Shown one piece after another: positions 24,394 to 60,770 of a stretch of DNA of 64,000 nucleotides. The translations under genes were made by a program, and so were the position numbers. The stretch is from Euprymna scolopes. Lineage: Eukaryota. Numbering within the stretch: position 1 is the first letter of the stretch; the number at the start of each line of letters is the position of its first letter. The notes below the pieces were generated by a model. It had not been told where the DNA came from. It was given only the letters and a program-made list of their open reading frames with translations, and searched no databases. The stretch lies in NCBI GenBank assembly GCA_053919585.1, contig CM132794.1, one strand, 5' to 3'.

Positions 24394-24529
24394 AATATAA
24401 TTGTTTATAATTGTACTATTCAGAAATATTATTTATAGTTCGTCCATTTCAGTTAGTATACATTTCCTTTACGCTTAATTAATTTACAATCATTAATATC
24501 GTTAAACAATTCCGTTTAAAACCGAAATT

Positions 24530-27500
24530 ATGCCACCCAAACGAAGTAGAAACGAAAGTGAGGAAGAAAGAATGGAAAGATTGGAAGCTAATAGACTAAG
24601 AGTTGCTGCAATTCGCTCCAATGAAAACAATTCAGATAGAGAAAGACGTCTAGAACTTAACAGGATACGTCAAAGAGAAAGGAGAGCAAGACTGTCAGAT
24701 TTGGAAAGAGAAACCCAACATGAAGCTGACAGAACTAGACATGCTGTAAGGCGGTTAAATTCATCACAAGATGAAATTCAAGAAAGGCAAAGATATGCAC
24801 TGGAAAGAGAAGCAATATTACGATCGAATGAATTATATGAGGTAAGTAGACGTACACAAGGTCAGTTGAGAGTGGCTCAACGACATCAGAATGAATCGGA
24901 AACCCAACGAAGCTTTCGCCTATACCAAGGGCAACAACGAGAGGCTGCATGGAGAGAGAGTATGACTTTGCCCCAGCAATTGACAGAAAACGAGGCAGCT
25001 AGACAACGAATGACTGCTTTGAGACACCATGAAATAGAACACTGCAATAGAAAAGGATTGCTCTACAACAAAAATGACTCTCTCACTACAGCTGATATAG
25101 GAAAAATGGACAAAGTATGTCAACATTGCTCAGCTGTAAAATTTAAAGGAGAACCCCCTGGTTGTTGTTGTTGTTCTTCTGGCAAAGTTGTGCTTGATAG
25201 CTTTCCACCACTGCCTCAGTTGCTTCAAGATTTGCTCTCCGGCAATGGTCCCATCTCTAAAGATTTTCTGCAAAATCTATGCAGTTATAACAATTGTTTT
25301 GCAATGACATCATTTGGTCACAAAATTGCGGCAGTACATGGGTGGAATCCTTCTTTTAGAATTCGAGGCCAGGTTTGCCACCAGATTGGGAGTCTTTTAC
25401 CACCTGAAGATGAAACAGCAAAGTTTATTCAAGTCTACTTCTTGGATAGTCTGGAAGAGGAACTACATAATCGGGGACGTGACAGTAGACTCAATAGAGA
25501 CATTCTCCAAAGTCTGACTGAATTTTTACATGAGAACAACAGCTTTATTTGTCAGCTGAAAACAACAAAGGAGAGGATTGAAGAAGAACACTTGGTAGAA
25601 CATAAAGTTGTCATAAGGGAAGACCGAAGGCCGCAAGAAGAGCATCCACGGCGATTCAATGCTCCAACAACAACGTATGAGATTGGAATATTAATGGAGA
25701 ATGAACCAACAGCTAACCGGGATATTGTCTTGCGTTTTAGAAATGATACATTAAAATGGATCTCCGAACTACATCCCCTCTACGATACTTTAATGTACCC
25801 GTTAATGTACCCCTATGGTTCTCCATCTTACAACATCTACATGAAGGCATCCAATGGGCGAAAAGTTACCCAACAGCAATTTTATTCGTACCATTTAATG
25901 ACTCGGCCTGGAAACTATTTTCTCTGGTACCGAAGGCTATTTCAACAATGGCTGGTGGATGTGTACTGCAAGATTGAAACAGAACGTTTACAGTTCCTGA
26001 GGCGTGAGCAACAGACCCTGAGAGCTGACAATTATAGCAACTTGAGAGATTCAATTCTTAGGGAGGATGGGAATCCAGAACAGTTTGGTCAACGAGTTGT
26101 ACTTCCGGCAACTTATACAGGAGGCCCTCGATACATGTTTGAGCGTCAAAGTGATGCCATGGCATATGTTCGGCGAATGGGCCGAGCCGACCTCTTCATC
26201 ACGTTCACAACAAATCCAAAGTGGACAGAAATTACAGAAAATTGTCTTCAAGGGCAAGACCCTCAGGATCGTCCAGATATTGTTGCCAGGGTTTTCAGGC
26301 AGAAGCTAAAAAAGTTACTTGAATTTATTAAAAAGGGAGGATTTGGCAGGTTGAGGGCTTTCCTGTACAGTATTGAATATCAAAAAAGAGGACTGCCGCA
26401 TGCACACATCCTCACCTGGCAGGCCCCAGAGGACAAACTTCTACCAGAAAAAATGGATCTCTGCATATCTGCAGAGATCCCTGACAAAGAGGAAGATCCT
26501 GATCTTCATGCTAAAGTGATGGCACATATGGTGCATGGACCTTGTGGACCATTTAATCCAAATTGTCCATGTATGATTGACAACAAATGTTCCAAAAAAT
26601 ACCCAAAAGAATTTCTTCAGTGTACCAAGCAAGGCCAAGACTCTTACCCCAAGTACAGGCGAAGAAAACCAGAAGATGGAGGCCAGACTGGTACAATAAG
26701 GATGAAGAGAAATGGTCGGTATGTTAATCAAGAAATAACAAACCAGTGGATTGTTCCGTACAACAAGGTCCTCCTTCAGCAGTTCAACGCTCACATTAAC
26801 GTAGAAATTTGCAGCTCGATCCAAAGCATCAAATATGTCCTCAAATACGTGAATAAAGGATGTGATCAAGCAGTGTTTGAACTACAAAGAACTGATGGAG
26901 CAGCTAACCAACAAGGCCAAGTACAAAGTCACATTGTGGATGAGATCCAGCAGTTCCAGAATGCAAGGTATGTCGGCAGTTCAGAGGCAGCCTGGAGGAT
27001 ATTGGAACATCCCATCCATGAACATTTCCCCCCAATTGTACAACTTTCTGTTCATCTTGAAAATGGGCAGCGTGTCATGTTCTCAGCTGATACTGCTCTG
27101 GAACGAGCCCAAGGTCCACCGCCTGCCGCAACTTTGACAGCATTTTTTCAACTCTGCCATGAGGATGACTTTGCAAGGGGTCTCAAATACGTAGAAGTCC
27201 CTGAGTTTTACACTTGGAACAAATCGACAAAGAAATGGATGAGAAGAATGCGTGGGGTACAAGTTGAAGGTACTGAAAATGATGATGTATGGAAGGCACC
27301 ATGCATTGGGAGAATCTACACGATTAGTCCAAAAGCAGGGGAGTGTTATTTCTTACGCCTGTTGCTCAATGAGGTTGCTGGTCCAACTTCATTTCAAAAT
27401 TTGCGAGCATACAATGGTCAGGTGTTTGAAACATACAGAGCAGCGTGCCTTGCTCGAGGCCTTCTAGAAAATGACCATCACTTGCATCAAGCAGTAGGAG

Positions 27501-27868
27501 AGGCAAGTGCCACTCAATCACCTTCAAATTTGCGAAGCCTATTTGTGATAATTTTAACAGCCTGTGAGCCAAGAAATCCTCTTGAGATCTGGATGGCTTT
27601 TCGTGATGTAATATCTGAAGACATTCTTCACAGATACAGGCAAGAAGTTAACAATCCAGAAGCAGATTTTAATGAGGACATCTACAATAAAACTCTTTGT
27701 CTAATTGAAGAAAAAGTTCTCCTTATGTGCGGTCAACCATTGGCAAGCTATGGATTACCTGCACCAATGCAAGGGAGAGATGAAAGACTCGCGAGAGAGT
27801 ATCAACGTGAAGTTACTTATAATCTTGAAGAACTTCCCTACAAGCAGAAAATATGCAAGAAAAACTGA
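24530..27868 (+). CDS. Helitron RepHel, N-terminal part (STPR-like repeats, Zn finger, HUH Y2 Rep domain)
   Basis: 1112-aa ORF with CQHC..CCCC, DLFITFTTNPKW, EYQKRGLPHAHIL (HUH) and KYVLKYVNKG (two Tyr). Confidence 0.95.
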   Translation: MPPKRSRNESEEERMERLEANRLRVAAIRSNENNSDRERRLELNRIRQRERRARLSDLERETQHEADRTRHAVRRLNSSQDEIQERQRYALEREAILRSNELYEVSRRTQGQLRVAQRHQNESETQRSFRLYQGQQREAAWRESMTLPQQLTENEAARQRMTALRHHEIEHCNRKGLLYNKNDSLTTADIGKMDKVCQHCSAVKFKGEPPGCCCCSSGKVVLDSFPPLPQLLQDLLSGNGPISKDFLQNLCSYNNCFAMTSFGHKIAAVHGWNPSFRIRGQVCHQIGSLLPPEDETAKFIQVYFLDSLEEELHNRGRDSRLNRDILQSLTEFLHENNSFICQLKTTKERIEEEHLVEHKVVIREDRRPQEEHPRRFNAPTTTYEIGILMENEPTANRDIVLRFRNDTLKWISELHPLYDTLMYPLMYPYGSPSYNIYMKASNGRKVTQQQFYSYHLMTRPGNYFLWYRRLFQQWLVDVYCKIETERLQFLRREQQTLRADNYSNLRDSILREDGNPEQFGQRVVLPATYTGGPRYMFERQSDAMAYVRRMGRADLFITFTTNPKWTEITENCLQGQDPQDRPDIVARVFRQKLKKLLEFIKKGGFGRLRAFLYSIEYQKRGLPHAHILTWQAPEDKLLPEKMDLCISAEIPDKEEDPDLHAKVMAHMVHGPCGPFNPNCPCMIDNKCSKKYPKEFLQCTKQGQDSYPKYRRRKPEDGGQTGTIRMKRNGRYVNQEITNQWIVPYNKVLLQQFNAHINVEICSSIQSIKYVLKYVNKGCDQAVFELQRTDGAANQQGQVQSHIVDEIQQFQNARYVGSSEAAWRILEHPIHEHFPPIVQLSVHLENGQRVMFSADTALERAQGPPPAATLTAFFQLCHEDDFARGLKYVEVPEFYTWNKSTKKWMRRMRGVQVEGTENDDVWKAPCIGRIYTISPKAGECYFLRLLLNEVAGPTSFQNLRAYNGQVFETYRAACLARGLLENDHHLHQAVGEASATQSPSNLRSLFVIILTACEPRNPLEIWMAFRDVISEDILHRYRQEVNNPEADFNEDIYNKTLCLIEEKVLLMCGQPLASYGLPAPMQGRDERLAREYQREVTYNLEELPYKQKICKKN

Positions 27869-29244
27869 CCGATTCTCAAAGAGAAGTTTACAATTCATTC
27901 ATGGCAATGTTGGAAGCACAAGGTGAAATGAACAAAAACATGATGTTTCTTGATGCTCCAGGTGGTACGGGCAAGACTTTTGTAATCAATTTGATCCTTG
28001 CAAAGATTAGATCCATGAGAAAGATTGTGCTTGCAACAGCATCCAGTGGCATTGCTGCTACTCTACTACAAGGTGGCCGCACTCTTCACAGCACTTTTAA
28101 AGTACCCTTGGATACTCATCGAATGGATCAGCCAGTTTGCAAAATTACTGGTAACTCAGCCTTGGCAAATGTAATTAGAGACACCTCTGCAATCATTGTA
28201 GACGAAGCCCCAATGACGCACAAGAGTGCTTATGAAGCAATTGACCGAACACTGCAAGACATCACAGGAAACAAGAATCCCATGGGTGGCATTCCAACCT
28301 TATTTTGCGGTGATTTCCGTCAAATCCTCCCAGTGGTTAAAAATGGCACAAGGGCTAACATTGTCAATGCAAGTTTGAAACAATCCTATCTCTGGAGGCA
28401 CGTTATAGTGAAGAGACTGACTACTAATATGAGAGCCTATATCTCTGATAACACAGCTGCAGCAGACGTCTCAAAATTGCTTCTCCAAATCGGTAATGGT
28501 CAGTTTCCTATCACTTCTTCACCTGACACAATTAAGATTCCAACTGCGCTTGGTAAATGTGTCGGTAATCAGAAGCAACTGAAAGACAAAGTGTACCCAG
28601 ACCTGCAAAACAATGGAAAATCACCGGATTGGCTTGCTGAGAGGGCTATTATTTCGCCATTAAACAGCAATGTGAATCATTTGAACAATTCAATAATGGA
28701 TGAATTTCCAGGAGACACAAAGCAATACAAGTCAGTTGATTCAGCTACTAATGAATATGAAGCTGTTCACTACCCTGTGGAGTTTTTAAACTCTTTGGAG
28801 ATATCTGGAATGCCTCCACACATTTTAAATCTCAAAATTGGATCGCCAATCATGATTCTTCGATCCTTGGAACCGCCAAAAACAACAAACGGAACCAGAT
28901 GTGTTATCACCAGATTGCACACCAATGTACTTGAGGCCACCATTTCCTGTGGTCCCTACAAAGGCGAAACCGTTCTACTGCCAAGGATCCCCTTAGTTCC
29001 ATCGGACTCAGTACTTCCATTTAAATTCCGGAGACTCCAATTTCCTGTGAAGGTGTGTTTTGCAATGAGCATAAACAAAAGTCAAGGTCAGACATTTAAC
29101 ACCATTGGCGTAGACTTGACATCAGACTGCTTCAGTCACGGTATGTTCTACGTCTCCATCAGCCGGACAGGAAGTTCAGAAAAACTCTACATTCTGGCTC
29201 CAAATCAAAGCAGCAGAAATGTAGTTTACCCTGAGGCTCTTTAG
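27853..29244 (+). CDS. Helitron RepHel, Pif1-family SF1B helicase part (separated from Rep by one frameshift)
   Basis: DAPGGTGKT (Walker A), IIVDEAPM, GDFRQILPV, AMSINKSQGQT, GMFYVSISR. Confidence 0.95.
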   Translation: MQEKLTDSQREVYNSFMAMLEAQGEMNKNMMFLDAPGGTGKTFVINLILAKIRSMRKIVLATASSGIAATLLQGGRTLHSTFKVPLDTHRMDQPVCKITGNSALANVIRDTSAIIVDEAPMTHKSAYEAIDRTLQDITGNKNPMGGIPTLFCGDFRQILPVVKNGTRANIVNASLKQSYLWRHVIVKRLTTNMRAYISDNTAAADVSKLLLQIGNGQFPITSSPDTIKIPTALGKCVGNQKQLKDKVYPDLQNNGKSPDWLAERAIISPLNSNVNHLNNSIMDEFPGDTKQYKSVDSATNEYEAVHYPVEFLNSLEISGMPPHILNLKIGSPIMILRSLEPPKTTNGTRCVITRLHTNVLEATISCGPYKGETVLLPRIPLVPSDSVLPFKFRRLQFPVKVCFAMSINKSQGQTFNTIGVDLTSDCFSHGMFYVSISRTGSSEKLYILAPNQSSRNVVYPEAL

Positions 29245-33547: not shown

Positions 33548-34203
33548 CGCGATGGATAGGAACTCTGAATCTCCTGACTGCATTCACTGCAATTACTGCC
33601 TTCAGTAGTTGTTGTTGTCTCACCACGTTTTGGCCAAGTAAACCTCTGGCCGGCTTTGGGCAGGATTGAAACCGCTATCTTCAGACAATTATCACCTGGA
33701 ACCGTAGAGATTCGACGTCTCTATAAACTGCACCACGGGCCCCGAAGGGCGAACAAGGTTGAATTTTTTGGTCGTATAAACTCATGTTTATTATTTGATC
33801 TTCCATGGCCGTTTTTGTAAATGTATTTATTAAAGAGTGTATTGATTTTAGTCAATATAATTTAGATTTAGAAACAATTCATTTTAAAATATTGTCGAAA
33901 TTGTTTACATTGTTTACATAAGAAACATTAGAGTATTAAGCAACTTAATCTTTACTGATCGGACGATCTTATTTTTTAAATATGGGTAAAGGTCANNNNN
34001 NNNNNNNNNNNNNNNNNNNNNNNNNNNNNNNNNNNNNNNNNNNNNNNNNNNNNNNNNNNNNNNNNNNNNNNNNNNNNNNNNNNNNNNNNNNNNNNNNNNN
34101 NNNNNNNNNNNNNNNNNNNNNNNNNNNNNNNNNNNNNNNNNNNNNNNNNNNNNNNNNNNNNNNNNNNNNNNNNNNNNNNNNNNNNNNNNNNNNNNNNNNN
34201 NNN

Positions 34204-35855
34204 CCGGGTGTTAGGAGGTGTATGTTGAGCAAAAAAAAAGCGGTTAATTTTTTAAACTTTGACCCCTATTATGACCACTTAAAATTTATTGTTTTCGGCT
34301 CCAATTAAGTTATTAAGTTAGATCCATATCCAAGGAACCTATATCTAAAATTTCAAGTGTTTAGACCCCAAATTGTCGGAGAAGTTTAGTAGAGTTCTAA
34401 AAGGTTAAATCGTTGAAGTTTAACCCCTTAACAGCCAAATTTCTAGCCGAAAACCGATCACACAGATTTTCCCAAATCTCAGTAACTTGTATATCAAATT
34501 TCGAGTCTGCAAACTTAAAATTTACAGAGTTATTTTGTTGGGAAATGGACTAGGACACACACACAGACACACAGACACACAGAAACACAGACACAAAGAC
34601 ACGTTCACGTTTATAGATATACTAGCAATGGATGCTCGGCGTTGCCCGGGTGTTTGGAGGTGTATGCTGAGCCCAAAAAAGGTCAATTTTTTCAACTTTG
34701 ACCCCTATTATGACCCCTTCACATTTATTGTTTTGGGCTCAAATCAGGTTATTAAGTTAGATCCATGTCCAAGGAACCTATATCTAAAATTTCAAGTGTT
34801 TAGACCCCAAATTCTCGGAGGAGTTAGGTAGAGTTCTCAAAGGTCAAATCGTTGACCTTTGACCCTACAATCGCCAAATTTCTGGTTGAAAACCGATGAC
34901 ATCGATTTTCCCAAATTTCAGTACCCTGTATATCAAATTTCAAGTCTGTAGACTTAAAATTGACAGAGTTATTGCGTAGGGAAATGTACACACACAGACA
35001 CACAAATACACAGATACACGCACAGACAGACGGACAGACCCTTTCACTTTTATAGATAGACAGACTAGTATTCTAGACCGGAGTTGCCCGGGTGTTTGGA
35101 TGTGTGTGTTTAGCAAAAAAAAAAAAAAAAAGTAGTAGTAGGAAGGCAGGTTCGAACCCGTACCGTGAACGAGAAAAAACAGGGAAAATAATATTAGGTC
35201 TTTGCTGTTACGACTACCGCCAAACCGGAGGTGACTTATGTTTTAATTAAGGCTAGACAATCGAAAGGAGAGGATAACTTTCAAAAATATCGGCGACAAA
35301 AGCAACTCCCCCTGTGGAAAACTGCCCAGTTGAAGGCGAAAATATAAAGGTTTTTAGCTAAGTTTTCGATATTTGTCGTCTGAAAGGTCGACTTCAAAAC
35401 GATACTGATCTTGTAAAGATCCGTCGCCTCTGTCGAAAGTTTTAGGCAGACGTGTAAACATACATACATACATACATACATGCATTTATATATCGGTAAC
35501 TAAAAACTTTCGACCAAAACCGATTAAAGAGATTGTCCTATCTTTGAATACCCTTCATGTAAAATTTTAATTTAGACCAGAAATTCGGTAAAAACCGCTG
35601 AGGTCAAATTTCTCTAAACTTTGACCCTTATTATAGCCTCTTAAAATTTATTGTTTTGGGCTTAAATCAAATTATTAAGTTAGATCTATGTCCAAGGGAC
35701 CTATATCTAAAATCTCAAGTGTTTAGACTCCAAATTGGCGGAGGAGTTTGGTAGAGTTCTCCAGGGTAAAATCGTATAACTGTGACCCCTTAACAGACAA
35801 ATTTCTGGCCGAAACCGATCACAAAGATTTTCCCAAATCTCAGTACCCTGTATAT
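34204..35855 (-). mobile_element. Head-to-tail array of three non-autonomous Helitron copies
   Basis: Minus-strand 3' ends (CCGGGCAACGCCGAG-type hairpin plus CTAG) at 34622-34625 and 35065-35068 sit next to the TCTAT 5' ends of neighbouring copies. Same family as 7967-8767. The third copy is truncated. Confidence 0.8.
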
Positions 35856-35860
35856 AAAAA

Positions 35861-37520
35861 CCCGGCCCCTCACCTGTTGGGCTGAGTGTCAAGTGACGAA
35901 TCCTTGACTGGTACTACCCTGTCTCCCTGCAGCCGAGGCCGCTAGGAGACACATCCCATCATAAGAAGCTTATAATGGGGTATATATTTAATTGCCGCCC
36001 ACATCGGCAATATTTGGCACAAGGCCTGGAAAGTGGGATACCCGCAGGCTCCCCTAAAGAAGGGGCACTCCTGCAATTTTAAAAATTGCCTGAGTAACTC
36101 CGTCGGCATTCCCCGGTCGGGGCGCCTCAGGCAGCAAGCAATAAACTTGCCCCACCGGAAAGCCCGGTGGCATGGCCTGGGAGGGTGGACCTCCTAGGTA
36201 TTACCCAGGCGGTGTACCTCAATCCAACAGGTGCTGGGCCGGTTCCTGGCCCCTCACCTGTTGGGCTGAGTGTCAAGTGACGAATCCTTGACTGGTACTA
36301 CCCTGTCTCCCTGCAGCCAAGGCCGCTAGGAGACACATCCCATCATCTCAAGAGTGATAATGGGGTAGATATTTATTTGCTGCCCACCTCAGCAAAATGT
36401 GGCACAAGGCCTGGAAAGTGGGATACCCGCAGGCTCCCTTAAAGGAGGGGCACTCCTGCAATTTTAAAAATTGCCTGAGTAAACCCCATCGGCATTCCCC
36501 GGTCGGGGCGCCTCAGGCAGCAAGCAATAAACTTGCCCCACCGGAAAGCCCGGTGGCATGGCCTGGGAGGGTGGACCTCCTAGGTATTACCCAGGCGGTG
36601 TACCTCAGTCCAACAGGTGCTGGGCCGGTTCCCGGCCCCTCACCTGTTGGGCTGAGTGTCAAGTGACGAATCCTTGACATGTACTACCCTGTCTCCCTGC
36701 AGCCGAGGCCGCTAGGAGACATCCCATCATCTCAAGAGTGATAATGGGGTATATATTTAATTACCGCCCACATCGGCAATATTTGGCACAAGGCCTGGAA
36801 AGTGGGATACCCGCAGGCTCCCCTAAAAGAGAGGCACTCCTGCAATTTTAAAAATTGCCTGAATAACCCCGTCGGCATTCCCCGGTCGGGGCGCCTCAGG
36901 CAGCAAGCAATAAACTTGCCCCACCGGAAAGCCCGGTGGCAAGGCCTGGGAGGGTGGACCTCCTAGGTATTACCCAGGCGGTGTACCTCAGTCCAACAGG
37001 TGCTGGGCCGGTTCCCGGCCCCTCACCTGTTGGGCTGAGTGTCAAGTGACGAATCCTTGACTGGTACTACCCTGTCTCCCTCCAGCCGAAGCCGCTAGGA
37101 GACACATCCCATCATCTCAAGAGAGGAATGGGGTATATATTTAATTGCCGCCCACATCGGAAATATTTGGCACAAGGCTTGGAAAGTGGGATACCCGCAG
37201 GCTCCCCTAAAGAAATGGCACTCCTGCAATTTTAAAAATTGCCTGAGTAACCTCGTCGGCATTCCCCGGTCGGGGCGCCTCAGACAGCAAGCAATAAACT
37301 TGCCCCACCGGAAAGCCCGGTGGCAAGGCCTTGGAGGGTGGACCTCCTAGGTATTACCCAGGCGGTGTACTTCAGTCCAACAGGTGCTGGGCCGGTTCCC
37401 GGCCCCTCACCTGTTGGGCTGAGTGTCAAGTGACGAATCCTTGACTGGTACTACACAGTCTCCCTGCAGCCGAAGCCGCTAGGAGACACATCCCATCATC
37501 TCAAGAGAGGAATGGGGTAT
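35861..37520 (+). repeat. GC-rich tandem repeat, ~384-bp unit, 4.3 copies, highly structured (candidate retrozyme-like RNA)
   Basis: GGCCCCTCACC recurs at 35864, 36248, 36634, 37017 and 37401. About ten hairpins per unit. The repeat itself is certain; the RNA interpretation is inference. Confidence 0.95.
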
Positions 37521-37899
37521 GATCCCACACAGTCGGATGATTCTATTTATAAACGATGCTGCTAAGAACTGACGAATCAAATGAATTCACGTTCTGCTAC
37601 CAACCAATCAGAAACCAGAATTGCTTCATAAATATTAAACCTTTTCTGGAGCAATTTCACATGTTCTTTTTCCGGGTTTCGACACGGTAAGAATATTTTG
37701 TTCTGTGGAACTGTCTACTACAAACAAGTCACCTCCCAGGACTTGTGTGTAACAGCGAACCACCTGAAACTGTTCTGAAACTCATAATGGCTTACACTTC
37801 TAGACTATGTGTGTAAGAAACTATTTATATTATGGCGGAAGATGGCTATAAAAATGAACCATAGCGAAAAAGGAAGCAGTAGTCATTTTCATCCAATCC

Positions 37900-56890: not shown

Positions 56891-59800
56891 TTAATTTATG
56901 AGGGTGATATCTGATCAACATTTTATTTATGAGGATGATATCTGATCAACATTTTATTTATGAGGATGATATCTGATAAACATTTTATTTATGAGGATGA
57001 TATCTGATAAACATTTTATTTATGAGGATGATATCTGATAAACATTTTATTTATGAGGATGATATCTGATAAACATTTAATTTATGAGGATGATATCTGA
57101 TCAACATTTTATTTATGAGGATGATATCTGATAAACATTTAATTTATGAGGATGATATCTGATAAACATTTAATTTATGAGGGTGATATCTGATCAACAT
57201 TTAATTTATGAGGATGATATCTGATAAACATTTAATTTATGAGGATGATATCTGATAAACATTTTATTTATGAGGGTGATATCTGATCAACATTTTATTT
57301 ATGAGGATGATATCTGATAAACATTTTATTTATGAGGGTGATATCTGATCAATATTTTATTTATGAGGATGATATCTGATCAACATTTTATTTATGAGGA
57401 TGATATCTGATAAACATTTTATTTATGAGGATGATATCTGATCAACATTTTATTTATGAGGGTGATATCTGATAAACATTTTATTTATGAGGATGATATC
57501 TGATCAACATTTTATTTATGAGGATGATATCTGATCAACATTTTATTTATGAGGATGATATCTGATCAACATTTTATTTATGAGGATGATATCTGATAAA
57601 CATTTAATTTATGAGGATGATATCTGATAAACATTTTATTTATGAGGATGATATCTGATCAACATTTTATTTATGAGGATGATATCTGATAAACATTTTA
57701 TTTATGAGGATGATATCTGATAAACATTTTATTTATGAGGATGATATCTGATAAACATTTTATTTATGAGGATGATATCTGATCAACATTTTATTTATGA
57801 GGATGATATCTGATAAACATTTTATTTATGAGGATGATATCTGATAAACATTTTATTTATGAGGATGATATCTGATAAACATTTTATTTATGAGGGTGAT
57901 ATCTGATCAACATTTTATTTATGAGGATGATATCTGATCAACATTTTATTTATGAGGATGATATCTGATAAACATTTTATTTATGAGGGTGATATCTGAT
58001 AAACATTTTATTTATGAGGATGATATCTGATAAACATTTTATTTATGAGGATGATATCTGATCAACATTTTATTTATGAGGATGATATCTGATAAACATT
58101 TTATTTATGAGGATGATATCTGATAAACATTTTATTTATGAGGATGATATCTGATCAACATTTTATTTATGAGGATGATATCTGATCAACATTTTATTTA
58201 TGAGGATGATATCTGATAAACATTTAATTTATGAGGATGATATCTGATCAACATTTAATTTATGAGGATGATATCTGATAAACATTTTATTTATGAGGAT
58301 GATATCTGATAAACATTTTATTTATGAGGATGATATCTGATCAACATTTTATTTATGAGGATGATATCTGATCAACATTTAATTTATGAGGATGATATCT
58401 GATCAACATTTTATTTATGAGGATGATATCTGATAAACATTTTATTTATGAGGATGATATCTGATAAACATTTTATTTATGAGGATGATATCTGATCAAC
58501 ATTTAATTTATGAGGATGATATCTGATCAACATTTTATTTATGAGGATGATATCTGATCAACATTTTATTTATGTGGATGATATCTGATCAACATTTTAT
58601 TTATGAGGATGATATCTGATCAACATTTAATTTATGAGGATGATATCTGATAAACATTTTATTTATGAGGATGATATCTGATCAACATTTTATTTATGAG
58701 GATGATATCTGATAAACATTTTATTTATGAGGATGATATCTGATCAACATTTTATTTATGAGGATGATATCTGATCAACATTTAATTTATGAGGATGATA
58801 TCTGATAAACATTTTATTTATGAGGATGATATCTGATAAACATTTAATTTATGAGGATGATATCTGATAATCATTTAATTTATGAGGATGATATCTGATC
58901 AACATTTAATTTATGAGGATGATATCTGATCAACATTTTATTTATGAGGATGATATCTGATAAACATTTTATTTATGAGGATGATATCTGATCAACATTT
59001 TATGTATGAGGATGATATCTGATAAACATTTTATTTATGAGGATGATATCTGATAAACATTTTATTTATGAGGATGATATCTGATCAACATTTTATTTAT
59101 GAGGATGATATCTGATAAACATTTAATTTATGAGGATGATATCTGATAAACATTTTATTTATGAGGATGATATCTGATCAACATTTTATTTATGAGGATG
59201 ATATCTGATAAACATTTTATTTATGAGGATGATATCTGATAAACATTTTATTTATGAGGATGATATCTGATCAACATTTTATTTATGAGGATGATATCTG
59301 ATAAACATTTTATTTATGAGGATGATATCTGATAAACATTTAATTTATGAGGATGATATCTGATCAACATTTAATTTATGAGGATGATATCTGATCAACA
59401 TTTAATTTATGAGGATGATATCTGATAAACATTTTATTTATGAGGATGATATCTGATAAACATTTAATTTATGAGGATGATATCTGATCAACATTTAATT
59501 TATGAGGATGATATCTGATAAACATTTTATTTATGAGGATGATATCTGATAAACATTTTATTTATGAGGATGATATCTGATAAACATTTTATTTATGAGG
59601 ATGATATCTGATCAACATTTTATTTATGAGGATGATATCTGATAAACATTTTATTTATGAGGATGATATCTGATAAACATTTTATTTATGAGGATGATAT
59701 CTGATCAACATTTTATTTATGAGGATGATATCTGATAAACATTTTATTTATGAGGATGATATCTGATAGACATTTAATTTATGAGGATGATATCTGATCA

Positions 59801-60770
59801 ACATTTAATTTATGAGGATGATATCTGATCAACATTTTATTTATGAGGATGATATCTGATCAACATTTTATTTATGAGGATGATATCTGATAAACATTTT
59901 ATTTATGAGGATGATATCTGATCAACATTTTATTTATGAGGATGATATCTGATAAACATTTTATTTATGAGGATGATATCTGATAAACATTTTATTTATG
60001 AGGATGATATCTGATCAACATTTTATTTATGAGGATGATATCTGATCAACATTTTATTTATGAGGATGATATCTGATAAACATTTTATTTATGAGGATGA
60101 TATCTGATAAACATTTAATTTATGAGGATGATATCTGATAAACATTTTATTTATGAGGATGATATCTGATAAACATTTTATTTATGAGGATGATATCTGA
60201 TAAACATTTTATTTATGAGGATGATATCTGATAAACATTTTATTTATGAGGATGATATCTGATAAACATTTTATTTATGAGGATGATATCTGATAAACAT
60301 TTAATTTATGAGGATGATATCTGATAAACATTTTATTTATGAGGATGATATCTGATAAACATTTAATTTATGAGGATGATATCTGATAAACATTTTATTT
60401 ATGAGGATGATATCTGATCAACATTTTATTTATGAGGATGATATCTGATAAACATTTTATTTATGAGGATGATATCTGATAAACATTTTATTTATGAGGA
60501 TGATATCTGATAAACATTTTATTTATGAGGATGATATCTGATAAACATTTAATTTATGAGGATGATATCTGATAAACATTTTATTTATGAGGATGATATC
60601 TGATAAACATTTTATTTATGAGGATGATATCTGATAAACATTTTATTTATGAGGATGATATCTGATAAACATTTTATTTATGAGGATGATATCTGATAAA
60701 CATTTTATTTATGAGGATGATATCTGATAAACATTTTATTTATGAGGATGATATCTGATAAACATTTTAT
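56891..60770. repeat. 31-bp minisatellite, ~125 copies: TTATGAGG(A/G)TGATATCTGAT(A/C)AACATTT(T/A)AT
   Basis: Uninterrupted 31-bp period over 3880 bp with three recurrent variable sites. Confidence 0.98.

Follow-up and report, generated by a model that had tools for sequence, protein, structure and literature searches.

A 384-bp repeat nested in Copia LTRs of Euprymna scolopes is probably a SINE-like retroposon copied by an L1/Tx1-group LINE

Judged from its sequence, the tandemly repeated 384-bp unit in the window (the whole 64,000-nt stretch of Euprymna scolopes DNA analysed here) is probably a SINE-like retroposon copied in trans by a LINE of the L1/Tx1 group, and the hairpin singled out by the initial annotation would be its recognition tail. 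The observations comprise the host LTR, sites both empty and filled, LTR pairs with unlike contents, a LINE at the same site with target duplications, a tail common to unit and LINE, and covariation together with the strand to which it points; from the shared site and tail we infer mobilisation in trans by the LINE. The array, 4.3 copies at 35861-37520, is GC-rich within an AT-rich background, and the unit folded far more stably than its shuffled sequences on both strands (z = -8.1 and -6.9), reaching z = -10.7 on the minus strand in the true register (element 3, the reference). The initial annotation had located both hairpins correctly but had overlooked the host LTR and the true register of the unit. 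The parts of the array are as follows.

37520..37804, plus strand: remaining right part of a Ty1/copia LTR of family A, without a primer-binding site after it
37544..37551, minus strand: TATAAATA in the LTR, candidate borrowed promoter, 32 nt ahead of where element 1 begins
37136..37519, minus strand: element 1, the copy closest to the TATA box, SINE-like and complete at 384 nt, headed by the target-like leader TACCCCATT
36752..37135, minus strand: element 2, complete copy
36368..36751, minus strand: element 3, complete copy and reference; the copy-2 hairpin of the initial annotation is its 3' tail
35983..36367, minus strand: element 4, complete copy; the copy-1 hairpin of the initial annotation is its 3' tail
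35861..35982, minus strand: element 5, first ~120 nt only; the rest and the left end of the LTR are lost at the junction with a Helentron-like repeat
35991..36011, minus strand: 3' tail stem-loop of element 4, 7 bp with four covarying pairs, loop at 35998-36004
36376..36396, minus strand: 3' tail stem-loop of element 3, loop at 36383-36389
36012..36026 (element 4) and 36397-36411 (element 3), minus strand: conserved motif GGCCTTGTGCCA(A/C)AT before the stem, common with the LINE 3' end
35985..35990 (element 4) and 36370-36375 (element 3), minus strand: TAAATA after the stem, common with the LINE and separated by 2 nt from the target motif
36032..36037 (element 4) and 36417-36422 (element 3), minus strand: CCCACT, upstream strand of a candidate pseudoknot with the tail loop, not in the LINE
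35973..35982, 36358-36367, 36742-36751, 37127-37135 and 37511-37519, minus strand: target motif TACCCCATTA between elements

Since no primer-binding site follows the LTR at 37520..37804, it is a solo or a 3' LTR. On the left, positions 34200-35860 hold repeated units with ACAG microsatellites, which we take to be Helentron/HINE-like, and one of them cuts off the array and the LTR. Elsewhere, the window contains an apparently young Helitron (24506-29244, plus strand) with two long open frames, Rep (1120 aa) and PIF1 helicase (471 aa), and a 31-bp satellite at 56894-60770 (125 copies, 96% alike).

A DNA search of the 5.9-Gb genome gave 3,437 unit candidates on many contigs, 38 of which were scored. 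The flanks of the arrays were fixed and formed part of an LTR with a purine tract, a primer-binding site and 5-6-bp duplications; between the LTRs lie coding sequences for copia gag, integrase and RVT_2, none of them intact in the copies seen. The LTRs, primer-binding site, purine tract and gag-integrase-RVT_2 order place the host in Ty1/copia, and its primer-binding site presumably resembles that of Drosophila copia. The gag frame at L034:2662-3135 has its start within the LTR and continues across the primer-binding site. Units lie antisense to Copia at one fixed motif of its LTRs: exact patterns for family A matched 1,911 LTRs without a unit, 1,270 left ends with one and 2,090 junctions between units, against 0 for the reversed-pattern controls, and among loci selected by the unit the tail was followed by another unit or the LTR end in 84 of 93. 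The LTR of a second Copia family (gag 72-78% alike) could not be aligned with that of family A, yet the motif was the same, and further LTR types, which have only the motif in common, occur empty or filled. The six bases beside the motif are hypervariable in empty family-A LTRs and fixed in family B, and they resemble the leaders of the units; this may reflect evasion of the endonuclease, or an exchange at excision.

The two LTRs of one Copia element are identical at integration. Comparison of 12 Copia elements, with pairs picked by eye, revealed five with unequal numbers of units in their LTRs (L031 and L121-L124: 0 vs 2, 1 vs 0, 2 vs 0, 0 vs 2 and 1 vs 4) and one, L034, with four different units, the rest being uninformative; at L124, two units differ by 6.7% whereas the LTR tails differ by only 1.6%. 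Because LTR pairs that began identical have unlike unit contents, units arrive, or leave, after Copia integration. Long near-homogeneous arrays with 30+ and 21 junctions were also present (G000:C1:60986406-60999472 and C1:52937277-52944972), apparently on the way to satellite.

A 6.1-kb LINE occupies the same LTR site, likewise antisense to Copia (loci L128, L126 and L133). It encodes a CCHC ORF1, an AP endonuclease and an RT whose nearest solved relative is human L1 ORF2, its named relatives come from a cuttlefish (56-67% identical), and ~994 candidates carry its 3' end. When 30 LINE 3' ends were collected with a query excluding the flank, TACCCC came next in 29; 22 ran into the LTR end, six into a unit, one into a U2-headed piece and one elsewhere. 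At the 5' side, 24 of 30 LINE ends lay directly after the motif, and five of the more divergent ones in other sequence; target duplications of 13-21 nt flanked five of six full-length LINEs. By the AP endonuclease, the L1-group RT, the CCHC ORF1 and the target-specific insertion, the partner can be assigned to the L1/Tx1 group, as far as sequence features can tell.

Alignment showed that the LINE ends as the unit does, with GGCCTTGTGCCA(A/C)AT, a stem, TAAATA and 2 nt. The LINE stem is of other sequence, AT-rich and longer, and a hairpin was found in 29 of 29 parsed tails. The common sequence amounts to only about 17+6 nt plus the stem, which counts against the SINE-like reading, as does an exact TACCCC after only 3,485 of 7,591 unit-type tails. 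The tail pattern matched 10,120 times in the genome (some matches counted twice), in several LINE and short families and at several targets, U2-like arrays included. The use of different targets by a 332-bp subfamily and others also counts against the reading, and implies that more than one LINE family is involved, so that the 6.1-kb LINE is only a candidate partner. A metagenome scan for the tail gave nine matches, all unrelated beyond the motif.

Other carriers of the tail were seen around these families. The 332-bp subfamily (L201 and L209-L212 of G000:C1) is without the first 62 nt, sits in another repeat, with a TATA box 31 nt away, and has a new 5' hairpin formed with its new target. Other short elements with the same 3' tail, one 384-type unit among them, lie in U2-snRNA-like arrays (L202, L203 and L206; Rfam U2, 46 bits in L206). 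At L144 and L265, a U2-like head forms the 5' end of a truncated LINE piece and immediately follows the target motif, like the described SINEU/Tx1-Mar heads, and related LINE families that share the tail or the 5' end occupy other fixed targets (L192-L196, L207 and L213).

The initial annotation had claimed compensatory changes in the hairpin, and its sequence facts hold (ATTGCCG-CCCACAT-CGGCAAT at 35991-36011, TTTGCTG-CCCACCT-CAGCAAA at 36376-36396). A larger alignment bore the claim out: four of the seven stem pairs vary on both sides in 110 to 228 distinct copies. In 138 distinct units, the outer pair was T-A in 69 and A-T in 66, the sixth T-A in 105 and C-G in 28, and the second T-A in 122 and A-T in 10; a fourth pair varied (C-G 187, G-C 16) in the wider set with divergent subfamilies included, in which 228 of 272 distinct units were kept once rows within six differences had been removed. 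Among 110 distinct domain sequences (everything caught by the search pattern among 227 rows), four of the seven stem pairs varied on both sides and 96% of the stem cells were paired, compared with 30-57% in slid controls. When the tree was built from the sequence outside the domain, both sides of the outer pair changed together in 6.8 of 7 independent pairs (median p = 0.016); the other three covarying pairs were all concordant, with only 4-5 independent pairs each. A loop base that is not a partner was also linked (5.2 of 7), which indicates that the domain was swapped as a block and that mutational events were few. The neighbouring hairpin, said to stay paired despite its changed tip, did so in part: the mean stem in 78 distinct tips was 1.58, against 0.84 ± 0.09 in shuffled halves, but many tips, the CTCAAGAG type included, are only partly paired. 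The supposed GGGTA/TACCC bracket was not conserved, two of its five pairs being kept in only 66 and 42 of 228 units, and one arm is the target motif and lies outside the element.

Wobble pairs indicated the strand. Fifteen pairs were hand-picked from the 228-unit set, and at 10 of the 12 with two Watson-Crick states, though not at the other two, G.U exceeded A.C on the minus strand (e.g., 142 vs 4, 65 vs 2 and 60 vs 3); two single-state pairs favoured the plus strand (33 and 26 copies). Given this bias and the LINE partner, which reads the same way, the RNA is most likely the minus strand, and the flagged domain its last 60 nt. The claim that selection acted on RNA structure prior to integration is supported, and the tail domain is in all likelihood functional.

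For the pairing that the initial annotation proposed between an invariant CCCAC loop and a downstream GTGGG, complementarity by itself is no evidence, since at least five pairs arose in 4,497 of 5,000 shuffles. Covariation gives the pairing modest support, and the loop is not invariant genome-wide. In 228 units, the outer pair of the pseudoknot was C-G in 166, U-A in 21, U.G in 15 and A.A in 11, and the sixth U-U in 116, U.G in 68 and C-G in 27. Only 2-4 changes, in one or two lineages, fell on the tree, where the test was not significant, and the 110-row alignment contained one pair with a double change. One subfamily combines an upstream strand UCCACC with a loop GGUGGA or GGUGGG (335 matches in a pattern search, overlapping ones counted twice); this clade differs at 34 of 350 columns, touching 11 helix pairs, of which eight are still paired on the minus strand and three broken. 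In the 332-bp subfamily the outer pair is lost (A.A) and a U-A gained at the other end. On this modest support we lean towards a real pseudoknot. It would belong to the element only, complementarity between loop and upstream strand being at most 4 in 28 of 29 LINE tails.

In 84 of 87 family-A contexts the motif is preceded, at 32 nt, by a TATA box, as it is in family B and a third LTR type; in the unrelated repeat that hosts the 332-bp subfamily the box lies 31 nt before the site, with a splice-donor-like sequence after it. The spacing is therefore 31-32 nt in four independent hosts, three Copia LTR types and one unrelated repeat. From this arrangement, the element probably borrows the TATA promoter of the LTR, although the spacing could reflect tethering of the enzyme instead of transcription. 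The 5' target copy differed from the 3' copy in 32 of 34 insertions, and by at least two of the six variable bases in 12 of 18 single-unit cases, which implies that the element brings its leader along, as an RNA beginning at the motif would. ARAGORN detected no tRNA head, and Rfam no tRNA or snRNA in the window or, at E 10, in the array; an internal run of at least four U was present in 220 of 228 units. Pol III transcription is unlikely, given the missing tRNA or snRNA head and the U run. Rfam matches on the window and array were only chance miRNA-like hairpins, and Rfam did not confirm apparent resemblances to 7SK, RNase P, SRP and U1.

Words of the unit occurred in 19 of 24 sequencing runs examined. 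Three polyA read sets mapped on one single-unit LTR showed low signal on both strands, with neither pile-up of starts or ends nor back-joints, and a few reads skipped the unit; first mates were slightly more frequent on the plus strand over the unit (521 vs 418, 517 vs 370 and 162 vs 82 summed depth). In 20 vs 8 arrays, rare alleles were scarcer in units proximal to the TATA box than in distal units (p = 0.036); among loci that the unit query had not selected, the split was 10 vs 5 (p = 0.30), altogether a weak sign of age polarity within arrays.

The unit has the marks of a SINE in being short (384 nt), non-coding, of high copy number (7,591 exact unit-type tails) and furnished with a 3' tail common with a LINE; it departs from the strict definition in having no Pol III head from tRNA, 5S or 7SL. 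A canonical polyA hexamer in only 163 of 228 units also counts against the SINE-like reading, in which the structured, covarying, GC-rich body of 300 nt has no explanation. On that reading, the TATA box of the LTR would be read antisense and RNA would start at the target motif, making a promoter of its own unneeded. The ORF2 protein would bind the GGCCUUGUGCCA-hairpin-UAAAUA tail, to which the element-only pseudoknot would be an add-on that may stiffen or protect it. The enzyme would then nick the LTR at the motif and prime reverse transcription there, aided by read-through target sequence, and the target-like leader of the RNA would make the 5' junction. Each insertion would leave a new motif, allowing repeated insertion and mixed arrays, some of which would later have expanded in tandem.

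The initial annotation had seen the tail domain as the best candidate for a catalytic core, a view left without support: no Rfam ribozyme, core motif or read ends were found, and the domain is the 3' tail common with the LINE. We nevertheless weighed whether the unit contains, in this domain or elsewhere, a self-cleaving ribozyme of some class not yet described, which would resolve read-through multimers into monomers for the LINE to insert. A compact pseudoknotted domain with covariation, tandem arrays and a very stable fold would suit such a ribozyme, an element-specific pseudoknot would imply a job beyond LINE recognition, and site-specific R2 elements carry ribozymes according to work cited in the available part of PMC4494074. 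However, Rfam gave no match even at E 10, and core descriptors found no hammerhead, HDV-like, hairpin, pistol or twister core on either strand of the natural dimer, the HDV-like descriptor being loose enough to match 9 of 40 shuffles. The conserved bases are moreover those in common with the LINE, which is without the pseudoknot, one pseudoknot pair is lost in the 332-bp subfamily, and read ends are missing, a weak point given polyA libraries. We consider this explanation unlikely, and slightly more so the combined form in which a promoterless retroposon with a target-mimic 5' leader lands on the +1 of the TATA promoters of other elements and its 3' pseudoknot is such a ribozyme. A cleavage site in the tip loop was dropped, that point being the end of the 16-nt duplicated target.

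A retrozyme-like circular RNA, with the arrays as its rolling-circle cDNAs, would match the unit in size, dispersed tandem arrays and stable fold, as described for animal non-LTR retrozymes in the available part of 10.64898/2026.07.22.740005, and some long arrays are indeed homogeneous. Adjacent units are nevertheless up to 7% different and interleaved with LINEs, the partner is of the L1 group and not Penelope, no hammerhead core was found (CTGANGA in 7 of 228 units on one strand and 1 on the other) and reads showed no back-joints, although a polyA library would miss circles; we judge this origin very improbable. It is equally hard to credit that the unit is a non-autonomous LINE, arisen by internal deletion from an as yet unfound relative and owing its structured body to the UTRs of that relative: the common tail, its presence in several LINE families and a similar leader hairpin at LINE 5' ends speak for such descent, but similarity of the unit to the L128 LINE is confined to the tail, and the LINE UTRs seen are AT-rich in contrast to the GC-rich body. 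Least credible, and already largely refuted, is a U3 module of the Copia LTR (an enhancer or 3' UTR structure) whose gains and losses come from template switching and gene conversion, since its position inside LTRs, the flanking direct repeats and two helices that fit the plus strand better are outweighed by unlike units in two LTRs of one element, a LINE using the same site with a duplication, relatives in non-Copia hosts and wobble pairs pointing to the antisense strand. A circle inserted during Copia replication was dropped together with the U3 origin, after the unlike LTR pairs and the LINE at the same site.

A search of published papers turned up no description of this family. The closest known system is that of SINEU-3 and Tx1-Mar LINEs in crocodilians (Kojima 2015, PMC4494074), which, in the available part of that paper, resembles the SINE-like unit in a target within another transposon that is shared with a Tx1 LINE, in antisense orientation, in frequent tandem arrangement around a duplication and in the lack of a Pol III promoter. 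That text proposes transcription of SINEU-3 from flanking sequence, leaves open how headless SINEU-type elements are transcribed, and says that Tx1-8_Crp and Tx1-4_AMi prefer LTR retrotransposons. Compared with SINEU as described there, the 384-nt unit has no U1 or U2 head (Rfam at E 10) and has a 3' tail common with the LINE, of which none is reported for SINEU-1; a Copia LTR host, the fixed distance to a TATA box and the long covarying body further separate it from SINEU-3. The unit is thus neither a SINEU, having no snRNA head, nor a strict SINE, having no Pol III head.

Stringent LINE/SINE tails are marked, according to the part of Ohshima 2013 (PMC3747384) available, by conserved flanks around a variable, compensated stem, and the present pair agrees in the common 3' end, the compensated stem and the conserved flanking bases. 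It differs from the stringent pairs covered there in lacking a tRNA, 5S or 7SL head and a polyA or simple-repeat end, in its sequence-specific target and in a pseudoknot confined to the short partner. As with Keno, a U2-targeting Tx1 element, and other target-specific LINEs in the accessible text of PMC4640811 and PMC4494074, an AP endonuclease goes with a precise 3' junction and a multicopy target, and tail-bearing short elements here also lie in U2-like arrays; unlike the situation described for Keno, the main target is a Copia LTR motif, and the likeness to Tx1 is by features, not by named Tx1 sequences. Animal non-LTR retrozymes, in the available portions of 10.64898/2026.07.22.740005 and PMC7229834, have dispersed tandem arrays and a structured unit of a few hundred bases in common with the family; unlike the retrozymes described in the first of these, it has no type I hammerhead, its arrays are mixed and its partner is of the L1 group instead of Penelope. 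An octopus repeat annotation lists L1-Tx1 families without targets in the part of PMC13282606 available.

The system, if read correctly, would be a three-level parasite in which a short RNA rides on a LINE that itself targets the LTR of Copia. The fixed distance of 31-32 nt to a TATA box in four hosts makes the borrowing of a promoter directly testable. Human L1, the best-known member of the lineage, recognises only polyA, and the ~10,000 tails matched in several LINE and short families would amount to a natural mutagenesis of an ORF2 recognition tail. A target-specific enzyme together with a defined tail of 75 nt is the kind of pair used for site-specific gene insertion.
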